From an uncultured Eubacteriales bacterium (lineage in GTDB: Bacteria; Bacillota; Clostridia; Oscillospirales; Acutalibacteraceae), in assembly GCA_934489735.1 (NCBI GenBank), contig CAKSSR010000009.1:4856-68855 (forward strand): 64,000 nt of DNA, given 5' to 3'. Below, piece after piece: positions 1 through 21,000 of the stretch (position 1 is the stretch's first letter; every line of letters begins with the position of its first letter). A program made the position numbers and the translations under genes. Under the pieces are notes generated by a model. The model did not search any database, had not been told where the DNA came from, and saw only the letters and a program-made list of their open reading frames with translations.

Positions 1-881
1 TTTGCTTTTTTTATTTTTTTATATAAGAACAAACTTTTTAGGTATGTAATTGTTCCAAAGCTTTTACCTGGGGATACTAATTCATTCAAGTCCAGGTACC
101 ACATGATAAATCCTGCTGGTTTATTGTCTTTGAATGCAAATATAAGGCTTTCAGGATGTATAAAAGTTAATAATTCTTTTAACATTTCCTTATCTTCCTC
201 ATAATTTCTCGAATAATAATATCGATGATCTTTAAAGCATTCATTATTCAAGTCAGTATATATCTTAGAAAAATAATCAAAGTTCTCTTTGTCGAAGAAC
301 TTATATTCATAATTTTCGTCGACTCTGTCGATTAATGGTGAAAATCTCTCCATTTTTCTTTGACTGTCGGTACTTGACCATAGGTAAGTATTTAAAAATA
401 CTTCTTCAAAATCTAAATTTTTAAAGTAATCGTTATAATATTCTGGATTTGCGCCCATTCCGAATGAATTTTTTGAATCAAACTTATTTGCCAGCATACC
501 CAGGCCATAATTTACATGTCCGGCCAAGCCAACGACTAATTTTTGAGCACTATACTTTTTACCGATGCTTGATACTTCTTTTATCAACAATTGAACTGCG
601 TCTGGTTCGTTATCCAGTCCTTCAAAAAAGCTCATTTGTATGTAATCGGGGAGTTCTTTTGTATAGATAGCTATACATTGGCATTTAATTTCGTTATCAT
701 CTCCTAGTACATACATAGGAAATATCTTTTTTTTGTTAGAGAAACGGGTCCTCGAGTAAAACAATTGCTTTATCATCATCATATTATCGTCTACAAAGAC
801 TGCATTTTTTTTATAGATTTCTTTTCTAAATTTAATATATTTTAATTTTTCTTTAATTGATTTTACAATAATTACTTGCAT
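1..881 (-). CDS. GNAT-fold (double-GNAT/NMT-like) N-acyltransferase-like protein, N-terminal ~293 aa; gene runs off the left window edge
   Basis: My own minus-strand translation from ATG 881-879 stays open to nt 1. An AAGGTGG RBS lies about 12 nt upstream. Sequence: MQVIIVKSIKEKLKYIKFRKEIYKKNAVFVDD...VVGLAGHVNYGLGMLANKFDSKNSFGMGANPEYYNDYFKNLDFEEVF...LIFAFKDNKPAGFIMWYLDLNELV. It is absent from the ORF track only because there is no stop inside the window. The family call rests on a remembered motif layout, not a search. Confidence 0.5.
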   Translation of the reverse strand, partial: MQVIIVKSIKEKLKYIKFRKEIYKKNAVFVDDNMMMIKQLFYSRTRFSNKKKIFPMYVLGDDNEIKCQCIAIYTKELPDYIQMSFFEGLDNEPDAVQLLIKEVSSIGKKYSAQKLVVGLAGHVNYGLGMLANKFDSKNSFGMGANPEYYNDYFKNLDFEEVFLNTYLWSSTDSQRKMERFSPLIDRVDENYEYKFFDKENFDYFSKIYTDLNNECFKDHRYYYSRNYEEDKEMLKELLTFIHPESLIFAFKDNKPAGFIMWYLDLNELVSPGKSFGTITYLKSLFLYKKIKKA

Positions 882-924
882 TTATTATTTTAGCCACCTT
901 TCTTGGCAAAAAGAGTTAACTTTA

Positions 925-1191
925 CTATACATTTGACATGACATTTACTTGACTATCTATATATTCTACTAGATCTCCGATAGTATTTATTTCTAGATAT
1001 TTTTCTTCTGGTACAACTACTTTATACTTTTCTTCTATTGTGAAGAGTAAGTTTATCAAGTCAAAAGAAGATAGATCCAGATCGCTTCTTATATTTGTTT
1101 GTAAACTTATGTCTTGTTCTCTTATGTCACATTCTTCTTTTAGAAATTTCTTTAAATTGGTAAATAATTCTTCTGATCTGTTACTAATCAT
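925..1191 (-). CDS. stand-alone acyl carrier protein (88 aa)
   Basis: Track ORF. Small acidic protein with the phosphopantetheine-site motif DLDLSSFDLINLL. Its ATG overlaps the stop of the upstream ligase ORF by 8 nt. Confidence 0.8.
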   Translation of the reverse strand: MISNRSEELFTNLKKFLKEECDIREQDISLQTNIRSDLDLSSFDLINLLFTIEEKYKVVVPEEKYLEINTIGDLVEYIDSQVNVMSNV

Positions 1192-1846
1192 ATTGATCCC
1201 TCATTATTTTGTTATTACTTGTCTTTTTGAATTCGTTTTTCATTAGTTCAAAGTCACATATTTTCATATAGTATGGCAATTCGGAATTAATTATATCTAT
1301 ATCTTTTTTCAAATCAATGCTTCCAATATCCTTAACAGAATTGTCTAAAAATATCTTTGCGATTATCTTATATGTCCCTTTTTTCAATGCTACTATACAT
1401 TCTTTTACATAATTCAATCTTAAAAGCTTGTTTTCTATTACTTCCGGCGAAAATTTCTTTCCATTTTTCAAGACTATTAGATTACTTTTTCTACCGGTGA
1501 AATACAAAATATTACCATCTTTATATCCCAGGTCACCAGTTTTATAATATCCATTAATAAATGACTGTCGAGTTAGTTCATCATTTTTATAATATCCTAG
1601 CATTACACTAGGACCTTTGACTAATATTTCTCCATCGTCTGCTATTTTTAAATCGATGTCTTTCAATATCAATCCAACGCTTCCGATGACGTTATTCTTA
1701 GCCATGCAAACAGAAACCAATGGAGAGCATTCGGTTAATCCATATCCATTAACTAAATCTATTCCAAGTTCTTTATATTTGCTGACATAAACATGATTAA
1801 GTTTGGCCCCTCCAGAAAGCATTAAGGATAAATTCTTACATATCAA
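1184..1846 (-). CDS. adenylate-forming acyl ligase (acyl-CoA synthetase / fatty acyl-AMP ligase family), C-terminal half
   Basis: Core motifs GYGLTE (A5), YKTGDLG (A7) and GRKSNLIVLKNGKKFSPEVIE (A8). The frame differs from that of the N-terminal half. Confidence 0.8.
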   Translation of the reverse strand: MICKNLSLMLSGGAKLNHVYVSKYKELGIDLVNGYGLTECSPLVSVCMAKNNVIGSVGLILKDIDLKIADDGEILVKGPSVMLGYYKNDELTRQSFINGYYKTGDLGYKDGNILYFTGRKSNLIVLKNGKKFSPEVIENKLLRLNYVKECIVALKKGTYKIIAKIFLDNSVKDIGSIDLKKDIDIINSELPYYMKICDFELMKNEFKKTSNNKIMRDQYD

Positions 1847-1916
1847 GTTACCAAATAATAATCTTCTAATATCTATTCCGACCTTTAGTAAAAGGTTGCT
1901 TATCTTTATCGAAATA

Positions 1917-2768
1917 TTAAATATCTTTTCTTTCTTTCTTTCTCTTTTTTATTTCAAGAATTAGTTTTTTATATATTCCTTCAGCAAGCATAGGTACAGC
2001 GCCAATGCAATAAGGGTTAAATTCTTTAATATCTTTGAACAAATATTTAATGTCGCTATTAATGCATACAGTCATGCCTTTATATAATGCTACCAAGACT
2101 CCACAATTGAAGCCATATGTGTGGTTGAATGGTAAAATTGCTAAAAAGGAGTCTTTGGGATCATTGTTTTGTAAAGCACCTCTTATATTAGAAATGATAT
2201 TTTTTTGAGAAAGCATTATTCCTTTGTTTATTCCGGACGTCCCAGATGCAAATGCTAACATTGAGAACTTGTTATCAGGGACATCCTTGATGTTATCAAA
2301 CATTTCATTAATATCAAATTTTTTCGATATAATATTATTAAATTCCTCATCGATATTTATAATTTTTATATCAGAACTTAAATTTTCTAATTTATTCTTA
2401 GTTTTGTCTGTATAAAACAAAACTTTGATATCAAATTCCTTTATTATTTTAAATAAGTCTTCTCTAGGTAAGTTTTTATCTAAAGGTGCTATTACATTTG
2501 AAAAGACAGAGCTTAAATAAGTCACAATATATTCATAGCGATTTTCAGATATTATTCCAATATTTAGATTTTCTATATTATTTTCTATATAATAATTATA
2601 CATGCTACATATATTAGATATCAAGTCATTGAATGAAATTTTATTTATATTCTTTTCTTTTCTATATCTTACTGCTACATTGTCTTTGTAAATTGTATAT
2701 AAATCCTTAAGCATGTCATAGAAGTTTGAACCTTCTCTTGCCTCATACAATTCAAAATCTTTGTTCAT
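1917..2768 (-). CDS. adenylate-forming acyl ligase, N-terminal half
   Basis: FASGTSGINKG (A3 motif) and NHTYGF. The ATG lies 1 nt after the stop of the peptide ORF. See the finding on the frameshift junction. Confidence 0.8.
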   Translation of the reverse strand: MNKDFELYEAREGSNFYDMLKDLYTIYKDNVAVRYRKEKNINKISFNDLISNICSMYNYYIENNIENLNIGIISENRYEYIVTYLSSVFSNVIAPLDKNLPREDLFKIIKEFDIKVLFYTDKTKNKLENLSSDIKIINIDEEFNNIISKKFDINEMFDNIKDVPDNKFSMLAFASGTSGINKGIMLSQKNIISNIRGALQNNDPKDSFLAILPFNHTYGFNCGVLVALYKGMTVCINSDIKYLFKDIKEFNPYCIGAVPMLAEGIYKKLILEIKKRKKERKDI

Positions 2769-2769
2769 T

Positions 2770-3048
2770 TTACTTAATAAGTCCTTTCTTTATGCCAAAT
2801 TGATAGCATTTGTTTAGTTCATCCATGGTTACATTTACACCTCTTTTATCAAAAAGTCTTTTTGTTTCTGAGAGACTCTTACAATTCGCTAATTGATTTG
2901 TAAATTTTTTATCATTTAATGCAATCCTTACATCCTTTCTACACATGGCAAGAAAGAGTCTTCCTTGCGTAGTACTTAAATATCTGTCCAAGGCATTAGA
3001 ACCTCCTGATATTTCTTCTAAATTTTCGTTACTTAATTCATTTGACAT
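2770..3048 (-). CDS. 92-aa peptide with double-glycine-type leader motif (candidate bacteriocin/RiPP precursor)
   Basis: The N-terminus MSNELSNENLEEISGG fits the LSxxELxxIxGG double-glycine leader consensus. The C-terminus is Lys-rich (FGIKKGLIK). A GGAG RBS is present. This is the first gene of the operon. Confidence 0.6.
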   Translation of the reverse strand: MSNELSNENLEEISGGSNALDRYLSTTQGRLFLAMCRKDVRIALNDKKFTNQLANCKSLSETKRLFDKRGVNVTMDELNKCYQFGIKKGLIK

Positions 3049-3089
3049 TAAAATTCATCTCCATTTCTACAAAAAATACAATATTATAC

Positions 3090-3119
3090 ATTATACATTA
3101 AAATAGTAGTAAAAATCAA
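3090..3119 (-). promoter_or_regulatory. putative sigma-A promoter of the peptide-ligase-ACP-acyltransferase operon
   Basis: The minus strand reads TTGATT, an 18-nt spacer, then TATAAT preceded by TG. It lies about 40 nt upstream of ATG 3048. Confidence 0.4.
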
Positions 3120-3298
3120 ATAAAACGATATAGAATTTTTAGAAATATTTTTATAATATTAAGCAATGAGGAAGAAAATTTAAACTAAATTAAGGATGAT
3201 TGAAATTCAAATTACATAGTTTTAGAGAATTTGAGTTAAAAATAGCTGTTAAAGTGCAATCGGATGTGGTATAATAAGCAAAAGATTCAAATGAGCAG

Positions 3299-4354
3299 GT
3301 GAACGAATTGTTATCTATTATTGTAAATGGAAGTAAAGTTTTAATAAAAAGAGGGATTTTAGATTATTGTGGGGAATTTATCATAGACGAAGTAAAGTTT
3401 TCTAAGGCATTGATTATAAGCGACAGGAATGTTTCAAGGATTTATATGGACAGGCTGACGAAGCAGTTAAGCGACATGAACTTTAAAACTGACATATATT
3501 TAATAGAAAATGGAGAAAAGAGCAAAAATTTAGCGACAGCTGAGAAAATATATGACTTATTATCATCGACATTAATATCAAGGGCAGACTTAATCATTGC
3601 AATTGGAGGGGGAGTAGTTACAGACATAGCGGGATTTGTAGCTGCGACATACAAAAGGGGAGTAAATTTAATAAATATTCCAACATCTTTACTAGGAATG
3701 ATAGACGCATCGATAGGAGGGAAGAATGGAGTCAATACGAATTTTGGGAAAAATCTAGTAGGGACATTCTATCAGCCGAAGTTAGTCATCATTGATCCAG
3801 ACATTTTAAACACTTTACCAATGGATGAACTAAGAAGTGGTATAGCCGAGGCAATAAAGTACGGATGCATAAGTGACAGATATTTATTTAGTATTTTAGA
3901 GCAAGGCAGCTTGGATGAGAATAGGGAAGAAATAATAAGTAGATGCATAATAATAAAGAAAAAGGCAGTAGAGGACGACCCATTTGACGAAGGGGAGAGA
4001 ATGTTATTAAATTTTGGACATACCATTGGACATGCGATAGAGAAAATGTACAATTATGGGACTGTATCGCACGGGCAAGCGGTATCAATTGGAATGAACA
4101 TAATGACAAAGGTATCAGAAATGGAAGGATTGACTTCAAAAGGGACATATAAAAGGCTAACCTTACTATGCAAGAAATACAACTTACCGATAAGCGTTGA
4201 TGTACCAATAGACATGATATATAAAACGATATTAAATGACAAAAAGGCACTAGACGACTATATAAATTTAATATTTATCAAAGAAATAGGGAAAAGCTTT
4301 ATATACAAGTCAAAAATTGATAGATTCGTTGAACAAATGACTAAAATATGTTAG
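3299..4354 (+). CDS. aroB: 3-dehydroquinate synthase
   Basis: Motifs GGGVVTDIAGFVAATYKRG, NFGHTIGHAIE and HGQAVSIGM. An in-frame TTG at 3308 has a better RBS (AGGTGA, 5-nt spacer) than the GTG at 3299. Confidence 0.9.
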   Translation: MNELLSIIVNGSKVLIKRGILDYCGEFIIDEVKFSKALIISDRNVSRIYMDRLTKQLSDMNFKTDIYLIENGEKSKNLATAEKIYDLLSSTLISRADLIIAIGGGVVTDIAGFVAATYKRGVNLINIPTSLLGMIDASIGGKNGVNTNFGKNLVGTFYQPKLVIIDPDILNTLPMDELRSGIAEAIKYGCISDRYLFSILEQGSLDENREEIISRCIIIKKKAVEDDPFDEGERMLLNFGHTIGHAIEKMYNYGTVSHGQAVSIGMNIMTKVSEMEGLTSKGTYKRLTLLCKKYNLPISVDVPIDMIYKTILNDKKALDDYINLIFIKEIGKSFIYKSKIDRFVEQMTKIC

Positions 4355-4394
4355 AATAAGGGTGGTGAAAGCTATCAATTGATAGCGATGTGAC

Positions 4395-5486
4395 ATGTCA
4401 TCTATTTGGGGGAGCAATGTAAAGATATCTATTTTTGGAGAAAGTCATGGAAAAGGGATAGGAGTTACAATCGACGGACTACCATCTGGAGAGAGAATAG
4501 ATATGGAAGAGATAGAATTTGAAATGAAAAGAAGGAGGCCGGGTGAGAATTCTTTATCGACTGGAAGAAAAGAGAAGGACAAGCCAGACATAATTTCAGG
4601 GATGCTAAACGGATTTACGACAGGGACACCTCTGTGCACTATTTTCTATAATAATGACATAAATCCTTTACATTATGATGAACTAAATTATATAATTAGG
4701 CCTGGCCATGCCGACTATACTGGCCATGTACGATACAAAGGGTTTGCAAATTTCACGGGAGGAGGGCATTTTTCTGGAAGATTGACATGTCCATTAGTAT
4801 TTGCAGGTGCAATATGTAGACAGATTTTAAGAAAAAGAGGGATAGACATTGGATCGCACATCAGTTCAATTGGAGAAATAAACGACGAAAGGTTTAATCC
4901 AACTAAAATTGATGAAAAGACTTTAAATAAGTTGGCAAAGTGTTCGTTCCCGACGATTGATGTTGGCATAAAGGAAGAAATGATTAAAAAAATAGAAGAA
5001 GTAAAGAAAGACAATGATAGCATTGGAGGAACTATAGAATGTGCTATTATTGGAATCAAAGCAGGATTAGGCTCGCCTATGTTCGACGGAATAGAAAGTA
5101 AGATATCTTCAATCATTTTTAGCATACCGGGAGTAAAAGGGATAGAATTTGGCAATGGCTTTTATTCATCAAGCATAAGAGGAAGCGAGAATAATGATCC
5201 GTTTTTTTATGAAAATGATAAAATTAAGACAAGGACTAACAATCATGGAGGAATATTGGGAGGAATAAGTTCAGGAATGCCAATAATATTTAGGGCAGGA
5301 TTTAAACCGACTCCATCGATTGGCAAGATTCAATCAAGTATTAGCTTAAAAGATAAGACTCAAGAGGAAGTTAATATAAAAGGCAGGCATGATCCATGCA
5401 TAGTCACCAGAGCAGTACCAGTAGTTGAGTCAGCTGCAGCAATTGCTATGCTTGATATATTATTGTCTGATATAAGTCAATTTTGA
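4395..5486 (+). CDS. aroC: chorismate synthase
   Basis: FGESHGKGIGVTIDGLPSG, RPGHADYTG and GRHDPCIVTRAVPV are typical AroC signatures. Confidence 0.92.
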   Translation: MSSIWGSNVKISIFGESHGKGIGVTIDGLPSGERIDMEEIEFEMKRRRPGENSLSTGRKEKDKPDIISGMLNGFTTGTPLCTIFYNNDINPLHYDELNYIIRPGHADYTGHVRYKGFANFTGGGHFSGRLTCPLVFAGAICRQILRKRGIDIGSHISSIGEINDERFNPTKIDEKTLNKLAKCSFPTIDVGIKEEMIKKIEEVKKDNDSIGGTIECAIIGIKAGLGSPMFDGIESKISSIIFSIPGVKGIEFGNGFYSSSIRGSENNDPFFYENDKIKTRTNNHGGILGGISSGMPIIFRAGFKPTPSIGKIQSSISLKDKTQEEVNIKGRHDPCIVTRAVPVVESAAAIAMLDILLSDISQF

Positions 5487-5517
5487 TATATGAAAAGGAA
5501 TGGGGTGAATGTAGGAT

Positions 5518-6312
5518 ATGGAAAATTTAAAAATAAGTAAAAATTCTTTATATGGATTAAAAAAAATAGAAGAGCAGTTTGAATCATTGCACAAGGGGCT
5601 GCATATAATAGCAGGACCGTGTTCAGTAGAAAACAGAGAAATGATGGAAATTACAGCCGAGAAGCTATCGGAACTAGGAATTGAGTTCTTAAGAGGAGGT
5701 GCATTTAAACCGAGGACATCTCCTTATGATTTTCAAGGATTAGGCGAGGAAGGTTTGAAAATATTAAGAGAAGCAGGGAAAAAGTTTGGAATGCTAACTG
5801 TAAGCGAGGTAGTGGACACGAGATACGTAGAAACTATGACAAGGCATGTAGATATGTTGCAAATTGGTTCAAGAAACATGAGCAACTTTGAATTACTTAA
5901 AGAAGTTGGAAGGTCAAAGCATCCAGTTTTATTAAAAAGGGGGATGTGTTCAACAGTTGAAGAGTTCAAGTTTGCGGCGGAATACATAGCAAATGAAGGA
6001 AATAAGAATATTACTTTATGCGAAAGAGGCATAAGGACATTTGAGACAGCAACTAGAAACACCTTGGACATAGCGTGCATTGCAATATTAAAGAAAGAAA
6101 CAAAGTTACCAGTAATGGTTGACTTGAGTCATTCACTTGGCCGTAAAGATATATTAATATCAGTTGCAAGATCTGTAATAGCAATGGGAGTCGACGGAAT
6201 AATGATAGAAGTTCATAATGACCCGGGTAAAGCACTTTCAGATAAGTTTCAGCAATTAAGTTTGGATGAATTTAAGTATTTTATGACACAGATAGCAAAA
6301 AATGAAGTTTAG
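5518..6312 (+). CDS. aroF: 3-deoxy-7-phosphoheptulonate (DAHP) synthase, type I-beta (KDO8PS-like)
   Basis: 264 aa. Motifs [34 protein letters not shown] and LQIGSRNM. Confidence 0.85.
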
Positions 6313-6317
6313 GAGAG

Positions 6318-6866
6318 ATGATTTTGAAAAATATATTGATTTTGTCAGGGAGTCCACATAAAAATGGAACCTCTTCAGCATTATTGGATAGGTTTGAAGA
6401 GGGAGCAAGAAGCAATGGCAATGAAGTAACTAGGAGGAACGTAGCTTTCCTCAATATAAATGGATGCCTTGGCTGTAATAATTGTAAGATCAACAAGGGA
6501 ATTTGTAGCCAAGTTGATGACTTCTCGATGATCAAAGATGACATAAGGGAATCAGACGTAGTAGTCTTTGCAACGCCTTTATACTATTTTGGAATGTCGG
6601 CTCAGCTCAAACAAGTGATAGACAGATTCCACTCAATCGGCGACGAACTTAAGAATAAGAAGAGACAGACAATACTAATTTCAACTCAAACAAATCCAAG
6701 TCAAGAAATAACAAAAGCATTGATAGACCATTACAAAATGATTATAAATTATTGGGGATGGGATATAATTGATATGCTAATTGCTACGGCAGTACCGACT
6801 TTGGAAGAACTTATTAAGACGGATTATTTAGAAAAAGCTAAAGAACTAGGAAAAAGAATATCATGA
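6318..6866 (+). CDS. flavodoxin-fold NAD(P)H-dependent FMN reductase / iron-sulfur-flavoprotein-like protein
   Basis: ILILSGSPHKNGTSS N-terminus, CLGCNNC cysteine cluster and VVFATPLYYFGMSAQLK. It starts 6 nt after the DAHP synthase stop. Confidence 0.7.
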   Translation: MILKNILILSGSPHKNGTSSALLDRFEEGARSNGNEVTRRNVAFLNINGCLGCNNCKINKGICSQVDDFSMIKDDIRESDVVVFATPLYYFGMSAQLKQVIDRFHSIGDELKNKKRQTILISTQTNPSQEITKALIDHYKMIINYWGWDIIDMLIATAVPTLEELIKTDYLEKAKELGKRIS

Positions 6867-7675
6867 GAAAGAAAAAGATATATTTTGGAATGTTTTTTTG
6901 CTTTATAATTATGAATTTTGTACTTTATGCTGAGGTGAATGCATTGTTTTCTAATACTCATTATAACATCGGTAAGAAAATGATTACTAAAATGGATAAA
7001 AAACTAGAAGAAGATGAAGAAAAAGCATTCTTATCTGGAATGGTTTATGCAGATATAGGAAGATTTAAGTTCGATAAAGAAGTAAAGATTAACTCAGACT
7101 CAGAAGAATTTGTAAACATATTAGAAAAGTTTGCTAAGAATGATAACGAGATTTGGTTTGTAAAGGGAATGAAGATGCATATTATCCAGGACAGTCACAC
7201 AGACGAAATGATTTCAAATATCTTTGGAAAAAATGAAGAAGGATATATAGGTTATATAAAAGACTGCGGGATTTTAGAAAAGTACTTTTCAAATGTTGAC
7301 AACAGTTATCTATATAATAACCATTTGGATAAGTTTAGTCTTGATCAAGTGAAAAAAGGATTGAATATTGATAAAATGTTCGATAAATTTCACTTGCCGG
7401 TAGGAAATATCAATATATTATGCAAATCAATTTTAAATAATTATTACGACCACTTAAAAAAAGAAGAATTAGTTTCATCATATAACGATCTGATTATAAA
7501 AACATATGAATCTTTAGGATTGGATTTGAATAATGAAGACATTAATCAACAAGAGGCTAATATAGTTGGATCATGTGCAATCATTAGTTATGTTTCAGAA
7601 GTAAAAACTGACTTGAGTAAGATAATTGAATCAGAAATTGAGAGAATATCAGACTTATGTTTAGAATTTATTTAA
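6863..7675 (+). CDS. signal-peptide protein, possibly zinc phospholipase C / P1-nuclease-like superfamily
   Basis: Hydrophobic N-terminus, then THYNIG...GMVYADIGR...MHIIQDSHTD (a His/Asp pattern). The ATG overlaps the previous stop (ATGA). The family call is weak. Confidence 0.35.
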   Translation: MRKKKIYFGMFFCFIIMNFVLYAEVNALFSNTHYNIGKKMITKMDKKLEEDEEKAFLSGMVYADIGRFKFDKEVKINSDSEEFVNILEKFAKNDNEIWFVKGMKMHIIQDSHTDEMISNIFGKNEEGYIGYIKDCGILEKYFSNVDNSYLYNNHLDKFSLDQVKKGLNIDKMFDKFHLPVGNINILCKSILNNYYDHLKKEELVSSYNDLIIKTYESLGLDLNNEDINQQEANIVGSCAIISYVSEVKTDLSKIIESEIERISDLCLEFI

Positions 7676-11040: not shown

Positions 11041-12792
11041 TTGGAAACGTTAGGATTGTTTAAATATTTGGAGTTGATTTTATTGAAATTTAGTGAGAGG
11101 TTAAATAATTATATCAATTTACTAGGATGTACGGCAAAAGACTTAAGCAATGCATCAGGTTTATCTACGGCCACATTAAGCAGGTACAGGTCAGGGAAAC
11201 GCATACCGGACGTGGATTCTGAAATTTTTAAGAAAATTTACATGGCGATCATAATAATAGCCAATAGCAAGATGGCGGAGAAGTTAGATAAAAATGCAAT
11301 CAAGAAAGAATTTTTAGAATGTTCGGATATTATAATGATAAATAAAGAGCAATTTAGGCAGAATCTTAATACTTTGATATCGATATTAAATATAAATATA
11401 TCAAAGTTATGTCATTATATAAATTATGATACGTCGACTATATATCGGATAAGAAATGGGACACGTCAGCCAGCAGAATTATATAAATTTGCCTGTGGGG
11501 TATCGAAATTTATTTCAGAGCAAGCAAATTTTGATAATGACAAGAACATAGTAGCAAAACTATTGAATTGCGATATCAAAGAGTTAAGGGACGACTTGAA
11601 TTATGAATCAAAAGTTAGGAAGTGGTTAATAAGTAATAAAGAAAACAATAATTGCATATGTAAATTTTTAAATAGATTAAGTGAGTTTAACTTGAATGAT
11701 TATATAAACAAGTTTAACTTTAATAATATTAAGGTACCGTCGGTCCCATTTCAAATTCCCACGTCGAAAACATATTTTGGCTTAGAAGAAATGATGGAAA
11801 GTGAGCTAAGCTTTATAAAATCTACAGTTTTATCAAAATCGATGGGAAAAGTCATAATGTATAGCGACATGCCAATGCAAGAGATGGCGAAAGATAAAGA
11901 ATTTCCAAGGAAATGGATGTTCGGGATGGCATTGATGTTAAAAAAGGGACTCTATTTCAAACAGATACATAATCTAGATAGGCCTTTTGAAGAAATGATA
12001 TTAGGACTGGAAGCCTGGATACCGCTTTACATGACTGGGCAAGTTTCTCCATATTATTTAAAGAACGTTCAGAACAACGTTTTTTTACATTTCCTAAAGG
12101 TTTCGGGGTCAGCAGCACTTGTAGGAGAAGCAATCGCAGGGTATCATGATGAAGGGAAGTACTACTTGACAAAGAAAAAAGAGGAGGTATCATATTATAA
12201 GAAGAGGGCGGAAGAACTTTTAAGCAAAGCATATCCATTAATGGACATATATAAGGAAGACAGGACAGATGAGTTAAAGGCATTATTACTTTCAAATTCG
12301 AACATATCAGGAAATAGAAGAAATATTTTATCATCGCCACCGTTATATGTAGTTGATGAAGAATATTTAAGGAATATTCTAGAATTTTATAGGATAGATG
12401 AAGAAAAAATAAGAAAGATATTAAATTTTTCAAGGTTTCATAGAGAAATAATAGAGAAAATTTTAGAAAATAATATAATAAATGATGAAATTCAAGTACT
12501 AAGTAAGGAAGAATTTGAAAAAGAACCGGTAAAGGTTTCGTTCTATGGAATGTTTTGCAACTTAGACTTGCCTTATACTTACGAAATGTATTTAAATCAT
12601 ATAGAACAAATGGAGAAATTCTCAAATAGAAACAAGAATTATTTGATAAGTAAAAGGGATAAGTCAACATTTAGAAACTTGAACATATCTATCCATGAGA
12701 AAAATTTAGTAATTGTATCAAAAAGTAAGTTCCCGGAGATATATTTTGTCATCCGTCATCCTAAATTAAGAGACTCTATAGAAACTTTATGA
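11041..12792 (+). CDS. tandem XRE-type helix-turn-helix protein with a large uncharacterised C-terminal domain
   Basis: Two HTH units: AKDLSNASGLSTATLSRYRSGKRIP and ISKLCHYINYDTSTIYRIRNGTRQP. About 400 further aa have no motif I recognise. An alternative TTG start at 11083 follows a GGAG. Confidence 0.65.
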   Translation: METLGLFKYLELILLKFSERLNNYINLLGCTAKDLSNASGLSTATLSRYRSGKRIPDVDSEIFKKIYMAIIIIANSKMAEKLDKNAIKKEFLECSDIIMINKEQFRQNLNTLISILNINISKLCHYINYDTSTIYRIRNGTRQPAELYKFACGVSKFISEQANFDNDKNIVAKLLNCDIKELRDDLNYESKVRKWLISNKENNNCICKFLNRLSEFNLNDYINKFNFNNIKVPSVPFQIPTSKTYFGLEEMMESELSFIKSTVLSKSMGKVIMYSDMPMQEMAKDKEFPRKWMFGMALMLKKGLYFKQIHNLDRPFEEMILGLEAWIPLYMTGQVSPYYLKNVQNNVFLHFLKVSGSAALVGEAIAGYHDEGKYYLTKKKEEVSYYKKRAEELLSKAYPLMDIYKEDRTDELKALLLSNSNISGNRRNILSSPPLYVVDEEYLRNILEFYRIDEEKIRKILNFSRFHREIIEKILENNIINDEIQVLSKEEFEKEPVKVSFYGMFCNLDLPYTYEMYLNHIEQMEKFSNRNKNYLISKRDKSTFRNLNISIHEKNLVIVSKSKFPEIYFVIRHPKLRDSIETL

Positions 12793-12810
12793 TTATTTTG
12801 AAGGAGGTAA

Positions 12811-14703
12811 ATGTTTAGTATGGATAAAGAGCAAAAAAGTATATTAATGAGGATTATCATATCAATATTAATGCTGATTGTTTTAAATTTTATACCAATG
12901 ATAAGCTGGCTTAGAATAATTTTATATATGGCTACGTATTTGATAATAGGATTTGATATTTTGAAAGAAGCTGGCTTTGGAGTGATAAAAGGAAAGGTAT
13001 TTGATGAGAACTTTTTGATGGCTGTGGCAACGATAGGATCAATTGTTTTGGCAATATATGAAAAGAGCAGCGAATTCAATGAATCGATAGCTGTTATGTT
13101 ATTTTATCAAATAGGAGAGTTGTTTCAAGATTATGCAGTCGACAAGAGCAAGAAAAATATAAGTAATTTAATGGATATAAGACCGGACTATGCAAATATC
13201 GAAGAAGATGGAAGAATATCTAAGGTGGACCCAAATAAAGTATCAATAGGCAGTACGATAGTGGTTCAACCGGGTGAGAAAATCCCAATAGAGGGAATAG
13301 TAGTAGAAGGAAATTCTTTCTTAGACATGAGTGCATTAACGGGCGAAAGCGTCCCCAAAAAGGTCGAGATCGGTAATGAAGTAATAAGTGGTTGCATCAA
13401 TATGGAAGGACTTATAAAAGTTAAGACAACTAAAGAATTTGGTGAGTCAACTGTATCTAAGATTATCGAACTAGTTGAAAAGTCAAGCGAGAACAAGTCA
13501 AAATCAGAGAACTTTATAACAAAGTTTGCAAGAGTATATACTCCTGTTGTATGTATAATGGCTTTAGTGTTGGCTATTGTTCCACCGACTATTGATATCT
13601 TTTTGAACGGGACATCAACGTGGTTAGACTGGATATACAGAGCATTGACATTTTTAGTAATAAGTTGCCCTTGTGCACTAGTTGTTAGCATTCCTTTAAG
13701 CTTTTTTGCTGGAATAGGAGGGGCAGGAAAAGAAGGAATATTGATAAAAGGTTCGAACTTTATGGAAATACTATCGAAAATAAATGTGGTTGTATTCGAT
13801 AAGACAGGGACATTGACTCAAGGAGTATTTGAAGTTAAAGGAGTTCATCATAATAAAATAGAAGATAGACAGTTATTAGAATATGCAGCTTTGGCTGAGT
13901 CATCCTCATCGCATCCAATAAGTAAGAGCCTACAAAGAGCATATGGCAAGGAAATAGATAGAAATAGAATAAAAGATGTAAAAGAGATCAGTGGGCATGG
14001 ATTAATTGCCAAGGTTGATGAGGTAGAGGTGTGCGTGGGTAATGAAAAATTAATGGAAATGATAAAAGTGCCATACGAGCATTGCCATTCAGTTGGAACG
14101 ATTATACATGTTGCCATAGATAAAGAATATATGGGGCATATAGTGATATCAGATATTGAGAAACCGACATCAAAACAGGCAATATTGGAATTGAAAAAGA
14201 TAGGAATAGATAAGACAATAATGCTAACTGGAGACTCTAAAGAGGTGGCAAAGAAGGTGGCAGAAGACTTGAATGTGGATGAGGCATATGGAGAAATGCT
14301 CCCTAATGACAAAGTTTTAAAACTGGAAGAGATATTGAAAGAAAATTCTAGAAATTCTAAGCTGGCATTTGTCGGAGATGGAATAAATGATGCACCTGTA
14401 TTGTCCAGGGCTGACATCGGTATAGCAATGGGAGCAGTTGGATCGGATGCAGCAATAGAAGCGGCAGACGTGGTATTGATGGACGATGACCCGTTAAAGA
14501 TATCAAAAGGAATTAAGATATCAAAGAAATGCCTGGCAATAGTATATGAAAATATAACGTTTGCATTGGTCGTAAAGTTTTTATGTCTGGGATTCGGGGC
14601 TTTCGGCATAGCTAACATGTGGCTAGCAATCTTCGCCGACGTGGGGGTAACTGTTATAGCAATTATCAATGCGATACGTGCCTTGAATGTAAAAAGACTA
14701 TAA
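12811..14703 (+). CDS. heavy-metal (Cd/Zn/Co-type) translocating P1B-type ATPase without an N-terminal metal-binding domain
   Basis: TGES, SCPCALV (CPC), DKTGTLT and VGDGINDAP motifs. GGAGG RBS. It starts 18 nt after the HTH gene stop. Confidence 0.9.
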   Translation: MFSMDKEQKSILMRIIISILMLIVLNFIPMISWLRIILYMATYLIIGFDILKEAGFGVIKGKVFDENFLMAVATIGSIVLAIYEKSSEFNESIAVMLFYQIGELFQDYAVDKSKKNISNLMDIRPDYANIEEDGRISKVDPNKVSIGSTIVVQPGEKIPIEGIVVEGNSFLDMSALTGESVPKKVEIGNEVISGCINMEGLIKVKTTKEFGESTVSKIIELVEKSSENKSKSENFITKFARVYTPVVCIMALVLAIVPPTIDIFLNGTSTWLDWIYRALTFLVISCPCALVVSIPLSFFAGIGGAGKEGILIKGSNFMEILSKINVVVFDKTGTLTQGVFEVKGVHHNKIEDRQLLEYAALAESSSSHPISKSLQRAYGKEIDRNRIKDVKEISGHGLIAKVDEVEVCVGNEKLMEMIKVPYEHCHSVGTIIHVAIDKEYMGHIVISDIEKPTSKQAILELKKIGIDKTIMLTGDSKEVAKKVAEDLNVDEAYGEMLPNDKVLKLEEILKENSRNSKLAFVGDGINDAPVLSRADIGIAMGAVGSDAAIEAADVVLMDDDPLKISKGIKISKKCLAIVYENITFALVVKFLCLGFGAFGIANMWLAIFADVGVTVIAIINAIRALNVKRL

Positions 14704-14733
14704 TCATTGGGAAAAAATAAGAAATATATATGA

Positions 14734-14772
14734 CTCTGTATTGATTTTTAAAGTCAGTACAGAGATTTTTTT
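14734..14772 (+). terminator. rho-independent terminator of the ATPase operon
   Basis: 14-bp stem (two G-U pairs), loop TTA, then ATTTTTTTA. Confidence 0.8.
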
Positions 14773-14889
14773 ATAATTTGGCAAGACAAAAAAAGAAAAT
14801 GAAAAAGAATATAATGAACAATCATATATATATTGTGCACTAATATCATTTTAATAATATAGATATATGCACAAATAACTAAAACTGAC

Positions 14890-14918
14890 TTGACACAACA
14901 CATATTTATATATATAAT
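14890..14918 (+). promoter_or_regulatory. consensus sigma-A promoter of the giant LRR gene
   Basis: TTGACA (14890-14895), a 17-nt spacer, then TATAAT (14913-14918). Both hexamers are perfect. Confidence 0.7.
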
Positions 14919-15018: not shown

Positions 15019-18000
15019 ATGAATTTGAAGTTTTTTACATTGTTTTTTATTATATTAATGACAATAGAGCTAAATATATATGCTTTGGATAATGATTGTA
15101 ACGAAATTGATCTAAATAATACGAATATATGTATGGATGATAATTGTAAATTACTGACTAAAGGAATGACTGAAAAAGAAAATGATGATAACTTTGTAGA
15201 AATGTGTGACAAAATCCATCATGCTAATGAAAATGAAAAGGAAAAGCATGGGGAAAAGATGAATAAATCTAGTATAGTGCAAGGTAATGGTGAAAAAGCT
15301 AAGGATGATATTGAATATTTAAATGAAAATACTAAGTGCGTATCAACTGAGATCGAGAATCATATAGAAGAGTTAGACCAATTTGATGGAAATAATGAGG
15401 AAAATAACAAAGAAATGTTCGCTCAGGATTTAAAGACGGCTGAAATAGATGAAAATGATTTAATAAGTGGTAGCGATACTCAAGGATCTACAGGGACCCA
15501 AAGTGATGAAAATATAAAACTTGAAAACGAGACATTAACTATTTCAGTGGTTGGCGAAGTTACTTCAGATATGATAAGCCCATATAAGAGCGCAGTGAGA
15601 AATGTAATATTAAATGATACCGTTACAAGTATAGGAACGGAAGCATTTTTGAATTGCAGAGCTTTGAAATCTGTAGAAGTTTCTAAGAATGTGGGAAGCA
15701 TAGGAAGAGGTGCATTTGCAGATTGTACTAGCCTGAAGGAAATAGTATTTAAAGGGTTGCCTACGATAGATAAAGAGAATGTAGTATTCAGTGGACTAAA
15801 TACGACTATTTATTATCCGTTAAGCGAAAGTGGTTGGCAAAGTATAGTCAGTAATAAAAGCAGTAGTACTTATCAAGGTGCGACTAATATAGAATGGGTC
15901 GGATATAACTATTTTACTTATTGCGGAAACAAAAACCAGAACGGAGGAAGGAATTTAATAGATATAATTAATGAAGTTTCAAATTCGGAGTACGAATTAA
16001 GCATAATTAAGTCTAAAGCAGCGGATAGTAGTGGATTCGATATGATAGACTATAGTGATGACGAAATAAATAATAATGAAAATCGAACATTACTAATCCC
16101 TAATGGCTACACAGTTTCATCAATAACTATAGAAGATGGAGTAACAGGAATAGGAGCCAATGGCTTTAGAATGGGTGATGAAAAAATTGATGGCATAAAG
16201 GAAATTGTAATCCCGGAAAGCGTAAAATCAATAAATGAAAACGCATTTTATGGTCTTACAAGTTTAACTTCTGTTATATTTGAAGGAAAGTTTCCAAAAG
16301 TAAGCGGGACCAATACATTTAAAGATTGCAAAGTTACATTTCATTGCAATATGCATTATTGTAATGACAAAGAGTTTATAAAATTGACTGGAGAAACTAA
16401 ATGTTTTGGAGCTGAAGAAGCGAAATGGGACATATTTGGTTATTGCGGGAAAGGAAATTCAAAGATATTGAAGTGCACTTTAAAGAAAATAGAAGAAATT
16501 GGAGAGGATCATATATACAAAGCAGAGATAAATGTGGACTCTTCTTACGGCAGTGATTACTATATGGAAGATTATACTGCCATCAGGAGGTTTATACCAG
16601 AAGAATATACCAAGTATATTAAATATTTAATGCTGGACGTAAACATAAAGAACATAGGGGACTACGCCTTTAACGGATTAAGTGCGCTTAAATGGATTAT
16701 AATTAATGATAAGATTGAAAAAATAGGCAAGAATGCATTTGATGGATGCAATCGTTTAAAAGAAATAGATTTTATTGGGGATATGCCAGAGATAGGAGAG
16801 TTTGCCTTTAAAAATATTGCAGATTCAGCAACGATTTACTACGAAAGAGGCAATACAACTTGGAATAATGCTGAAGAAAATGGTATAAATATTAATAAAA
16901 ATGCAAGCTATAGAGGAGCAACTAATTTAAAATGGGCTGAGTGTCATCATTCAAGACATAATAGTAAAGGAACTGTATATAAAAGATGGACTGAATATGA
17001 CAATGGCAGTTATAAGAAGTTAGCATTCATGGGATACGGAATGATAGTAGACGATAATAATAATGAAAGTGTTTATGGAGAGGGATACTCCCCGACAACA
17101 ATAGAAATAAAAGAAGGATTGATATCTTCTGGTAAGTATTATAGATGGACTGCTACGAAAAATGCAATTTTTGCAGATACTGTTCAAATTCTAACTGAAA
17201 ATTCATTTAGAAGTAATAATTTAAGTGATATATTGTTGCCAAAAGGTTTAAAAACGATTGGGTACGCTGCTCTTTCTGATTTAAAAAGAGTTAATATTAC
17301 ATTTCAAAGTTATCCAACTTCTATGAACGGTTGTATGTTTGCCTACTGGGATAGTGCAGATAGGAATAAAACTAATCCTACGATATACTATCCTATTAAT
17401 AACAACAACTGGATTACAGCCAAGAGTGGGAATAAGAGAATAGTTGATAATACTTCTTTTGGAAACGGGATAAATATAAAATGGATAGGATATTGTTACT
17501 GCGGGGACAAAAGTGTTAACAACGGGGAAGATGTAAGATGCGAAGTTGAGAAAACGAGTGACGGAAGTTACAAAATGAGAATAACGGGCAAAGGAAACAT
17601 TAGAGATTATGAGCTAGACGATAGAATGATTCCAGAAAGTTATTCAAAAGATGTAAGGACATTGACCGTAGATTCAGGGGTAACAGGAATAGGGGCACAT
17701 GCATTTGAGAATTATAACAGCCTGAAGTCGGTAGACATAAATGGGGACTTATCAAAGATTGGCAGCAAAGCATTTTCGAATTGCCTTGAGTTAGGGACAA
17801 TAGACATTGCAGGGGCATTTCCACAAGAATTTAGTGAAGATGCATTTAACAATATTGACGTAGACGTATATTATTTATCAGACAAATGGAATAATGATAA
17901 GAAAGCACAAGAAGCGATAACGAATAACAAGCATGCAGGAGCAAGTCGCATAAATTGGTATAGCGACAATGTAACTGTTATTAAATGTGGGAATAAAATA

Positions 18001-21000
18001 TATTGCTATATTTATAAGAACCAAAATAAAATGGCATTCAGGGGCAGTGGGCACATAGATAATTATACAGGTAGTAATATACTTGCGAAAAGCAAAGACA
18101 TAAATGGCAAAGAAATAGATGTAAAACCAGAAGATATATATTATCTTGAGATGGAAAATGAAATACAAACTATAAGTAATAATATGCTAACTGGTTTTGT
18201 AAACTTAAAGACTATAGATACTAGCAATAAATTAATTGTTATAGGTAGAGAGGCATTCAAAAATAATAAGCTTTTAGAATCAGTAGCACTTCCAGATCAA
18301 ATAAATGAAATTTATGAAAGTATATTTGAAGGATGTGAGAGTTTAAAAAATGTAAACTTCCCGAGGAATACTAAAGGAATTACTAAGGCAATGTTTAAAA
18401 ATTGTAAGAGTTTATCTGAAATAGAACTACATGATGAAGTAACAGGAATAGGAGAAGAAGCATTTAGCGGTTGCAGCAGTTTAGACTATATAGAAATTCC
18501 CAAGTCAGTGACAACAATTGGCAAACAAGCGTTTGAAAGCTGTAGCGATTTAAATTCAATAAGCATCTTCGGGCAACCAAAGATAGAAGAAAATGCTTTT
18601 AAAGATTGCAAAGGTTTAAGAAAAATATACTTTTATGGAGATTTCCCTACTATAGATTCAAGTTCTTTTAAGAATATTGGTAGCAAAAATGATCCAACAA
18701 TTATATATTATCCAGGAGAGAATGAAACATGGAAAGCAAAGTATGATGAAAAGGTACTAACAGAAACATATGGAGGAGCGACAAATATAATTTGGACGCC
18801 GTATAATATCATAAATTGTGGACCGGATGACAATCCATCAAGTGTCATATGTCAATTAGTGAAAACTGATGGAGAAAATTGCTATAAAGCAAGAATAGTT
18901 AAGAATGGGGCAAGCAAAGGGGAAGAAATGAGAGATTATGAGGAAGGAAATAACATATTAACTGATACAAATTATGATAATTGTGAGATAAAATCTATAA
19001 AGATTGAAGAAGAAATATCGAGCATAGGAAACAATGCATTCAGTGGGTTTGAAAGTCTAGAGAGAATTTCATTTTACGGAGACTTTGTTACTGTAGGAGA
19101 GAATGCTTTTGGAGGAATAGGCAACAATGATCAAGCGGTTGTTGCATATTATCACGGGGACAATGCGACATGGAGAAAGAAGTATGAAGCCAAAGAGCTT
19201 ACAAGTGACTACAAGGGGGCAACCAATATAAAATGGATGCCATATGATATGATTTATTGTGGACTAATCAGTGAAAATGAAGGAGAGAATTTGATATGTA
19301 AACTTATTTTAACTGAAGGAGGGGAATACATAGCAAAGATATCAAAGAATCAAGCTGATTCTAGTGGGAAGATGAGAGATTATAATGCAGGAATGAACAT
19401 ATTGAAAGGAACTGAGTTTGAATCATATAATGTTACATATGTAGAAATAGATGAAGGTGTGACAACTATAGGCGCAAATGCCTTTAATGGATTGACAAGT
19501 ATTCAAAGAATTTATTTTTATTGTGACTATCCAGGAAAGGACAATACAGCGGAAGACAATATAGGAGAAAATGCATTCAAAGGGCTAGGAAAAAGTGACG
19601 ATCCAGTTATAGCATATTATCCGGAAAATACTAGCGATAGAAATGATGAAGCGGTACATATGTGGAACGGGATAAATGTGACAGATAAATTGACATCAGT
19701 TTTTAAAGGTGCAAGTAATATATTGTGGAAGCCATATAATAGTATATATTGCGGCGCCAATAGTGAAAACAATTATAGCGATTTGATCTGTAGACTGATT
19801 TATGTAAGCGGCGAGCAGGAAAATGAAGTATACATAGCGAGAATATCAAAGAATGGATTAGCTTCTGATGGTAAGATGAAAGATTATGATACAAATAATG
19901 GAAATATAATATCATCGGATAAGGATTTTAAAGATTTTGCTAACAAAATTCAATATATAGAGATAGAAGATGACGTAAGTAGTATAGGCAAGAATGCCTT
20001 TAATGGACTGACCAACGTGAGAAAAATGAATTTTTATGGAGATTTTCTTACTATAGGCGATAATGCTTTTGTAGGTATTGGAACAAATGGCAATCCAACA
20101 GTAATATATTATCCAGGAAACAATGAGACATGGCAAGAAAAGTATGAAGAAAATTTATTGACAAACACATATGCAGGAGCAACTAATGTAGTTTGGACGC
20201 CATATGATTCGATATATTGCGGGAAAGTAGGAAATGAAAAAGCTTTAATTTGCAAATTGATTTTAATCGGTAAGGATAATTATATGGCTGTAGTGTCAAG
20301 CAATGATAAGGAAAATGGAGAGATGTCAGACTATGAGGAAAATGAAAATATTTTTACAACATATAGTAGAAGTAAACAAAGCAGTACAGGAGCATTAGGC
20401 AATAGTGAAGGAATTGTTGAGAAAATTCACGAAATAGAAAGCAGTTTTGAGACAGGAGAAGGAGAAGAGATTCAAACTATTGATAATACCAGCATTGGGG
20501 ATAAGATAAGCGTAGTAAGAATAGGAGAAGGGGTTAAATCTATAGGCAAAAATGCTTTCAGTGGATTAAAAAATTTAAGAGCTGTTGTTATAGAGGGAGA
20601 ATTGAGCACGATAGGGGAAGGAGCATTTAAGAATTGTAGCAATTTAGAGGGAATTGTCTTTCTTAATGAAGCTGTAAGTAATACTTCTATTAAATCAGAT
20701 GCATTTTTAAATGATTCATTTAGTTTTTATTATCCTATTGATAGCAAAATTGACAATAAATCAATGGAAGGTAAAGGCGCACAGAGAATAGACATAAAGC
20801 CATATAAGTATTGTATCAATTGCGGGGACTTCAGTATAAGCGATGGAGACAACGCTGTAGCTTTAGTAGTGCCACATGGCAACAATAAGTACAAAATAGA
20901 GATAATAGGAAGCGAAAAGGTAGGGGACTACGAAGCAAGTTATGGCATGTTGGACGACAGTAGCATAGAAATATCAAAGAATGACATAATTTCAATAAGC

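Follow-up and report, generated by a model that had tools for sequence, protein, structure and literature searches.

Peptides with a double-glycine (GG) leader, such as the class II bacteriocins and ComC, are exported by C39-peptidase ABC transporters, and GdvG of the goadvionins/lipolanthines is known as a GNAT that depends on a carrier protein. SbzI of altemicidin biosynthesis is a GNAT that uses a carrier-protein-tethered acyl donor (PMC11685415). In gut Clostridia, a fatty acid amide pathway comprises the adenylating enzyme OaaA, the carrier OaaACP and OaaC, a stand-alone condensation domain (PMC13310621). Selidamide precursors carry a long N-terminal NHLP/Nif11 leader, a GG and then a short variable core, and their clusters encode lanthionine synthetases and arginases, with no dedicated ligase or carrier protein reported in the accessible part of that study (Hubrich et al. 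2022, PMC8784127). Here we analysed a 64,000-nt stretch of contig CAKSSR010000009.1 (assembly GCA_934489735.1, an uncultured Eubacteriales bacterium of the Acutalibacteraceae), called the window throughout. Its positions 1-3119 encode, on the minus strand, a 92-aa protein with a GG leader next to a ligase, an acyl carrier protein (ACP) and a GNAT-fold protein, a locus that a preliminary description had proposed to make a lipidated peptide that is ribosomally synthesized and then modified post-translationally (RiPP).

We found that this locus is one form of a gene cassette of gut and rumen Clostridia. Each of its parts is an enzyme of a known kind and their combination is conserved; the literature searched describes neither the cassette nor its product. 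Exact-protein look-ups of the ACP and the peptide retrieved identical metagenome contigs that reach further left, and these revealed a seven-gene operon encoding the GG-leader protein, the ligase, the ACP, a tandem GNAT (GNAT1), a putative FemAB-like GNAT and two B12 radical S-adenosylmethionine (SAM) enzymes. The last three genes lie outside the window and were seen on metagenome contigs such as L001; a convergent, unrelated gene bounds the operon downstream. We propose that the cassette makes a carrier-derived acyl product independently of the peptide and that the GG-leader protein is a clade-restricted accessory, a reading to which we give a probability of about one half.

This reading is carried by the distribution of the cassette. 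The tandem GNAT forms at least 154 protein clusters and has 79 loci in species-representative genomes, mostly from Lachnospiraceae of rumen and gut, with some from Oscillospiraceae, Defluviitaleaceae, Lawsonibacter and others. The gene order across these loci, mapped by tblastn, is conserved, with GNAT1 followed by the FemAB-like gene and then by 2-6 B12 radical SAM genes. A ligase and an ACP stand directly upstream in roughly 50 of the 79, and 32 of the searched loci have a class I methyltransferase. GNAT1 keeps its length and is 44-58% identical in most loci (29-38% in the most distant). The two radical SAM genes of the window species are orthologues of those recurring in nearly all sufficiently long loci (45-75% identity), and with just these two the window locus is the smallest cassette form in this survey. 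In one Oscillospiraceae metagenome-assembled genome (L016), the cassette has no ligase or ACP of its own and comes directly after a fab/acc operon. Several radical SAM genes of L016 are fragmented at 12067-14892 (128, 218 and 123 aa; 281 and 167 aa), which may reflect decay or frameshifts in the assembly.

Only one of the 79 loci (L018) encodes a homologue of the peptide. The precursor hunt combined phmmer and a family hidden Markov model (HMM) run on 4,598 small open reading frames (ORFs; 35-140 aa, ATG start), all-versus-all clustering of 325 gap ORFs and a GG-leader regular expression. In the other 78 loci it found no peptide homologue, no GG-leader ORF and no other conserved small ORF; the ACP was the sole conserved small-ORF family apart from antisense artefacts, and the idea of another precursor in the peptide-less cassettes was rejected. 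Because the enzyme set is conserved in dozens of species that have no such peptide, the cassette enzymes do not need it for their basic chemistry.

In the window, the operon runs on the minus strand from the 92-aa peptide ORF through a ligase in two pieces and the carrier protein to an edge ORF that is open to base 1. Its features are as follows.

3090-3119, minus strand: candidate sigma-70-like promoter upstream of the peptide gene (TTGATT-18-TATAAT, 10/12 matches)
2770-3048, minus strand: 92-aa small protein (MSNELSNENLEEISGG...FGIKKGLIK), a 16-aa double-glycine-type leader plus a conserved 76-aa domain predicted to be helical
3001-3048, minus strand: leader segment, codons 1-16, with GG at its end; hydrophobic at -4 (I), -7 (L) and -12 (L), acidic at -5, -6 and -9
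1917-2768, minus strand: N-terminal 283-codon fragment of an ANL (AMP-binding) ligase (PF00501 E 1e-27, profile positions 9-273)
1927-1942, minus strand: (GAAA)4 tract, one unit above the intact allele, the cause of the frameshift by alignment
1184-1948, minus strand: C-terminal reading frame of the ligase (PF00501 positions 287-384, E 6e-16; AMP-binding_C_3), listed as an ORF from TTG 1846
925-1191, minus strand: stand-alone acyl/peptidyl carrier protein, 88 aa (PF00550 E 1.3e-10; serine motif DLSSFD)
1-881, minus strand: tandem-GNAT acyltransferase (GNAT1) by predicted fold, first 293 of 363 codons, cut by the window edge

The preliminary description had given much of this layout correctly. 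The spacings it listed are exact on reading the sequence: 1 nt from the stop of the peptide gene to the ligase ATG at 2768, an 8-nt overlap of the ligase stop (1184-1186) with the ACP ATG (1191), and 43 nt between the ACP gene and the edge-gene ATG at 881, which is preceded by AAAGGTGG. The edge gene does leave the window, its ORF running from that ATG to base 1, and the five minus-strand ORFs behind a promoter-like site are present, the fifth because the ligase is frameshifted. As for the promoter itself, sites of the TTGATT-18-TATAAT type number 23 in this AT-rich DNA against 23.1 expected in shuffled sequence, and the candidate at 3090-3119 is assigned by its position only. Rfam gave no riboswitch or leader RNA match in positions 1-3400 of the window or in six cassette loci. 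On the plus strand and divergent from the operon, positions 3299-7675 carry aroB, aroC, a DAHP synthase gene and a flavodoxin-like gene (shikimate pathway); that shikimate genes adjoin an aryl/acyl-type ligase may be a coincidence, and the arrangement was seen in this species only. Further along the plus strand, positions 15019-28023 form a single ORF of 4,334 aa that consists almost entirely of BspA-type leucine-rich repeats (PF13306, 23 stretches).

The ligase is an ANL adenylating enzyme, as had been proposed, with PF00501 matched by both pieces. The N-terminal fragment ends at a premature stop (1917-1919) produced by the frameshift. By alignment, the window and L001 carry (GAAA)4, and L004 and L012 carry (GAAA)3 together with a linked A/G single-nucleotide polymorphism (SNP) nearby. 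The (GAAA)3 allele encodes an intact 526-aa ligase, whose L004 version covers profile positions 9-384 of PF00501 (E 2.8e-47) and qualifies as a member of the ANL superfamily. Since the alignment of this protein with its orthologue in a different lineage (L096, 59% identity) runs through the junction free of gaps, the window allele is a derived 4-nt insertion. At least five independent assemblies carry the split allele, and two contigs carry the intact one. The difference is a true strain polymorphism and not an assembly error: by one GAAA unit, the ligase is split or intact among strains of one species. The linked SNP suggests stable alleles rather than rapid phase variation. We considered rescue by programmed frameshifting or transcriptional slippage and found it unlikely with only six A's in the run; such rescue is also disfavoured by alleles that differ by a whole repeat unit and a linked SNP, which has the look of strain alleles. 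The ligase of this strain is a frameshifted pseudogene, and its pathway is either impaired or must obtain acyl-ACP from elsewhere. Matches to NCBIfam models were all far below their cutoffs and mixed (FadD, MenE, DltA). They do not assign the ligase to fatty acids, and its best solved relatives were 4-coumarate, MenE, oxalate and luciferase enzymes (E ~1e-18).

The PF00550 match and the conserved serine bear out the dedicated stand-alone ACP of the preliminary description. With the NCBIfam ACP (AcpP equivalog) models the protein scored up to 57 bits, under their cutoffs, so that it is a divergent dedicated carrier and not AcpP. For the edge gene, the 293 in-window residues matched nothing in Pfam or NCBIfam, and the full-length protein of 363 aa, taken from L001 (10311-11402), reached 20.2 bits with PF00583 against a cutoff of 20.7. 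Its AlphaFold2 model, built on an alignment of 32 homologues, had a predicted local distance difference test score (pLDDT) of 90.9, and Foldseek matched it to 5kf1 (E 1.9e-15, template modelling (TM) scores 0.62/0.70), to 7q3a and 2wpw (E up to 5e-13) and to MshD, with weaker matches to FemX and MprF. The product is predicted by this model to have a tandem-GNAT fold, so that the GNAT-like acyltransferase proposed earlier stands by its fold, while the match to the GNAT clan of Pfam stays just below threshold.

The gene after the edge gene encodes a 327-aa protein with 25.1 bits to PF04339 (cutoff 27) and 23.8 bits to PF13480 Acetyltransf_6 (cutoff 22); sequence search found no solved relative of this FemAB-like protein. 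Behind it come two radical SAM proteins (454 and 438 aa) of the B12-binding class, both with PF02310 and PF04055. Their nearest NCBIfam models are HpnR, BchE and PhpK, far under the cutoffs (best HpnR, 179 bits against a cutoff of 650). The first enzyme reached 179 bits with HpnR and 134 bits with BchE versus 22 bits with rSAM_ocin_1, which places it far closer to lipid/tetrapyrrole methylases than to RiPP methyltransferases and argues against a lipidated RiPP. The idea that these enzymes are diabolic-acid/membrane-spanning lipid synthases was also considered, for which the literature showed no link to GNAT or ACP genes.

We then examined the peptide. The double-glycine leader and the Lys-rich tail FGIKKGLIK were confirmed from the sequence. 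The preliminary description had regarded the GG as oddly placed; a 16-aa N-terminal GG leader is in fact usual in class II bacteriocin and ComC-type peptides. The family is very rare: an exhaustive phmmer search of 1.8 billion representatives gave five related clusters, a profile search raised these to twelve, among 5.8 billion, and a scan of JGI metagenomes with the peptide profile found no relatives. All homologues (P0121-P0125, P0130-P0136) keep [IV]SGG(N) and LCR(K/E)DV..AL.D..FT...K..F..RGV.V..E. In six aligned members, 15 to 33 residues precede the GG, the last ~12 residues are variable and Lys-rich, and the invariant positions are confined to residues 14-77, including Cys36-Arg37-x-Asp39 and Lys63. 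The leader spacing is canonical in the window peptide, P0121 and P0122 and shifted by one residue in P0123, P0124 and P0125 (3/6). Among the 25-160-aa ORFs of ~83 related loci, a strict GG-leader regular expression hit two ORFs only (L001, L096), both of the peptide family; the GG-leader pattern is no chance feature.

AlphaFold2 predicted residues 1-15 to be disordered and residues 17-92 to form six short helices (pLDDT 85-90). Foldseek found no structural relative in the PDB (best E 0.76), a sequence profile search of the PDB was also empty, and none of the relatives of this helical GG-leader family is annotated. Past the GG, the domain is hydrophilic (grand average of hydropathy (GRAVY) -0.35 to -0.76), with a net charge from -4 to +9 across members, and is unlike the pore-forming class II bacteriocins. 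Conservation is concentrated after the GG, in this predicted six-helix domain, whereas typical RiPP precursors show the opposite. Several members match Bacteriocin_IIc, TIGR01847 and Nif11, in each case below threshold: for Nif11 (PF07862/TIGR03798) the best score was 13.4 bits (cutoff 23.8) and one homologue reached E 0.006, and the weak Nif11-like matches occur in 3/6 members, in the window peptide at residues 44-78, after the GG (E 0.095). In addition, residues 56-89 of the peptide are matched weakly in three large proteins (P0126-P0128, 742-2,322 aa), as often as 13 times in one protein, and its C-terminal half may be similar to a module that occurs in repeats.

The linkage of the peptide to the enzyme set, proposed in the preliminary description, was found again in two other lineages, where homologues lie inside the same cassette. 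Co-occurrence with the ligase, ACP and GNAT trio held in all three of the long contigs examined (window/L001, L096/L100, L018/L099); in the survey, 78 of 79 cassette loci go without the peptide. The L096/L100 homologue (51% identical) leads its operon, as in the window, with a 4-nt overlap of the ligase start; that of L018/L099 comes last, behind the radical SAM genes. Such repeated placement inside the cassette speaks for a functional link between peptide and pathway. The known peptide carriers (the window/L001, L096 and L018 cassettes) all have their own ligase and ACP. In the GNAT1 tree, the three peptide-bearing cassettes fall into one sub-clade together with three peptide-less members, a pattern that fits a single gain followed by loss or relocation of the peptide.

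Two of the peptide-bearing loci carry further genes, which are absent from the window species.

L099 7392-7982 and 18551-19715, L100 11027-12903: accessory genes of peptide-bearing cassettes, namely an ICMT/PEMT-like membrane methyltransferase, an Sfp-type phosphopantetheinyl transferase (PPTase) and a 148-aa membrane protein

The ICMT/PEMT-like gene was found in none of the peptide-less loci; a PPTase homologue occurs also in L024, and the 148-aa protein also in L016 and L019. On a short contig (L098), a FabH-like gene (PF08541 E 2e-20) stands upstream of the peptide homologue P0125. A second sub-family of the peptide, P0124/P0130 (…ISGGNAVTNLANTFWGK…CCKQFKKHCK), has downstream of it an unknown protein of >343 aa with no Pfam match (L102 350-1378; L097 442-546), and the L102 product may be a different partner enzyme. 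A FemAB-like identity for this product, hinted at by BLAST (E 0.04), was unconfirmed by hhalign (1%), a 70-sequence HMM (-7) and Pfam. No immunity gene adjoins the window peptide, and no C39 or ABC exporter was found in the operon, its flanks or the five scanned window ORFs of at least 580 aa. The sole C39-related gene near any member is a stand-alone Peptidase_C39_2 of 309 aa with no ABC domain (L099 3843-4772), 3.4 kb upstream of the peptide-bearing cassette.

Based on the above results, we propose, as the most economical model, the following course for the pathway. The ligase would charge the dedicated carrier protein with a carboxylic acid, probably a fatty acid; the carrier-bound acyl (or aminoacyl) group would then be moved to an amine acceptor by one of the GNAT-fold enzymes or by both; and the product would be tailored by the B12 radical SAM enzymes, through C-methylation or a radical reaction of a related kind. 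For the donor, a fatty acyl group is plausible and is suggested only by gene neighbourhoods, that is, the fab/acc operon of L016, the FabH-like gene of L098 and the Sfp-type PPTase beside the cassette in L099 and L100. Since the cassette works in most species without a cluster-encoded peptide, the primary product would most likely be a small acyl-amide or aminolipid-type molecule rather than a RiPP. The GG-leader protein would be an accessory gained in one sub-clade, an exported and folded 76-aa helical protein that may serve as a secreted partner, a carrier or a secondary acceptor of the pathway product. Several observations weigh against this proposal. A mere accessory role explains poorly why homologues sit at two different positions of the cassette, one of them with a 4-nt overlap of the ligase start. 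In two lineages the peptide is accompanied by ICMT/PEMT-like methyltransferases, several peptide family members match Nif11 and GG-leader models below threshold, and the similarity of the ligase to 4-coumarate, MenE and oxalate enzymes singles out no substrate class. Moreover, RiPP maturases are established among both the B12 radical SAM enzymes and the GNATs (PMC8784127).

The most probable alternative, though an unlikely one, is a true lipidated RiPP or small lipoprotein, in which the tandem GNAT or the FemAB-like enzyme acylates the 92-aa product from the carrier on a Lys side chain or on the new N-terminus, the radical SAM enzymes methylate it, and a C39 protease/exporter encoded elsewhere then cuts the GG leader. 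The enzymes, the leader and the linkage on which the preliminary description based its lipidated RiPP locus are real; the RiPP claim itself finds partial support only. Translational coupling joins the peptide to the ligase in two lineages, and a third has it within the cassette; all three long contexts of a very rare family are this cassette; SGG is conserved and the window leader is canonical; Lys63 is invariant and the variable C-terminal tail is Lys-rich; and GNAT lipidation of Lys/Orn is established for selidamides (PMC8784127). The weak Nif11-like similarity (best E 0.006) and the stand-alone Peptidase_C39_2 in L099 point the same way. Against it, 78 of 79 loci are peptide-less while their GNAT1 keeps the same length and, mostly, 44-58% identity, and the supposed core is conserved and predicted to fold rather than variable. 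Neither the operon nor the scanned window ORFs encode a C39-ABC exporter, the first radical SAM enzyme resembles HpnR and BchE, and the second peptide sub-family adjoins an unrelated unknown protein instead of a ligase. A version in which the enzymes were recruited from a widespread, peptide-independent lipid/amide pathway of Lachnospiraceae, with the tandem-GNAT/FemAB-like pair acylating, from the dedicated carrier, the folded 76-aa protein freed of its GG leader and the B12 radical SAM enzymes C-methylating it, would give a novel sort of ribosomal lipoprotein/RiPP and is about as unlikely.

It is quite improbable that the small protein is an intracellular accessory subunit of the ligase/carrier pair, with a role that would be analogous to MbtH and with SGG as a structural element in place of a cleavage site. 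The tight coupling to the ligase start codon in two lineages would suit such a subunit, as would the presence of a ligase and an ACP in all three peptide-carrying cassettes, the folded, hydrophilic helical domain of variable net charge and the invariant Cys36-Arg37-x-Asp39 motif. However, ~47 other cassettes have a ligase and an ACP and no such protein, the gene lies at the far end of the operon in L018/L099, and the PDB holds no structural relative. The acidic amphipathic stretch before [IV]SGG matches an export leader, and the strict leader pattern occurs in no ORF outside the peptide family across the ~83 related loci. Least probable of all is that the peptide is bacteriocin-like or a signal, unmodified and unrelated to the enzymes, and only shares a transcript with their decaying genes: the frameshifted ligase, the GG leader and the loss from the window version of the methyltransferase, extra radical SAM, ICMT-like and PPTase genes of its nearest relatives would agree with it, but every contig seen has the other five genes as intact ORFs, three divergent lineages have the peptide together with the cassette, membrane-active class II bacteriocins do not resemble its post-GG domain, which is hydrophilic and, in some members, acidic, and adjoining immunity or exporter genes are absent.

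With the peptide-independent acyl product as the preferred reading, a cassette of at least 79 species of gut and rumen Clostridia probably makes a heavily tailored acyl-amide or lipid in abundant commensals, and related Clostridial acyl-amide pathways yield host-receptor ligands. The cassette is a good target for natural-product or lipid discovery, the window copy itself being reduced and frameshifted. The GG-leader sub-clade offers a natural experiment on whether a pathway of small-molecule acylation acquired a ribosomal product as its partner or its substrate. In genome mining, GNAT and radical SAM genes next to a GG-leader ORF do not suffice for calling a RiPP.

Finally, we compared the locus with known systems. 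The edge-protein model resembles the tandem-GNAT structures of glucosamine N-acetyltransferase (5kf1), MAB_4324 (7q3a), clavulanate CBG (2wpw) and MshD (1ozp), with TM 0.55-0.70 and E 1e-9 to 2e-15; these solved enzymes share 9-11% sequence identity with it and use acetyl-CoA as the donor and small amines as acceptors. With the double-glycine leader peptides the window peptide shares a 16-aa N-terminal leader, hydrophobic residues at -4/-7/-12, acidic residues and a GG end. It differs from them in that matches to leader families stay below threshold (best E 0.06), no exporter is nearby, the leader spacing is unconserved in the family, and the mature part is a conserved, hydrophilic domain of six predicted helices instead of a cationic amphiphilic peptide.

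The selidamides, with their GNAT maturases KspN and PhaN, share with the window locus a GNAT beside a ribosomal peptide, a Gly-Gly and Lys-rich ends, and the window peptide has weak Nif11-like similarity (Hubrich et al. 2022, PMC8784127). Measured against the same account, the window peptide has its GG first, at residues 15-16, and its conserved helical domain after it, so that the selidamide type of leader is not what it carries. Its GNAT is a 363-aa tandem protein with a sub-threshold PF00583 match, compared with KspN/PhaN by description only. The window cassette has a dedicated ligase and ACP, and most cassettes are peptide-less, so that GNAT and precursor do not co-occur as they do there. 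SbzI and GdvG resemble the window GNATs in a carrier-tethered donor in place of acyl-CoA, which is suggested here by gene order; their donors are derived from polyketide or fatty acid synthases, their acceptors are other ones, and they have no FemAB-like partner or multiple B12 radical SAM enzymes. The Oaa cluster comprises just three proteins, with no B12 radical SAM enzyme and no peptide gene (PMC13310621), and compared by description only it employs a nonribosomal peptide synthetase condensation domain where the window cassette has two putative GNAT-fold proteins. It shares with this cassette a free-standing adenylating enzyme, a dedicated ACP and an amide-forming transferase in gut Clostridia, and is the best functional analogy for a product made independently of the peptide.

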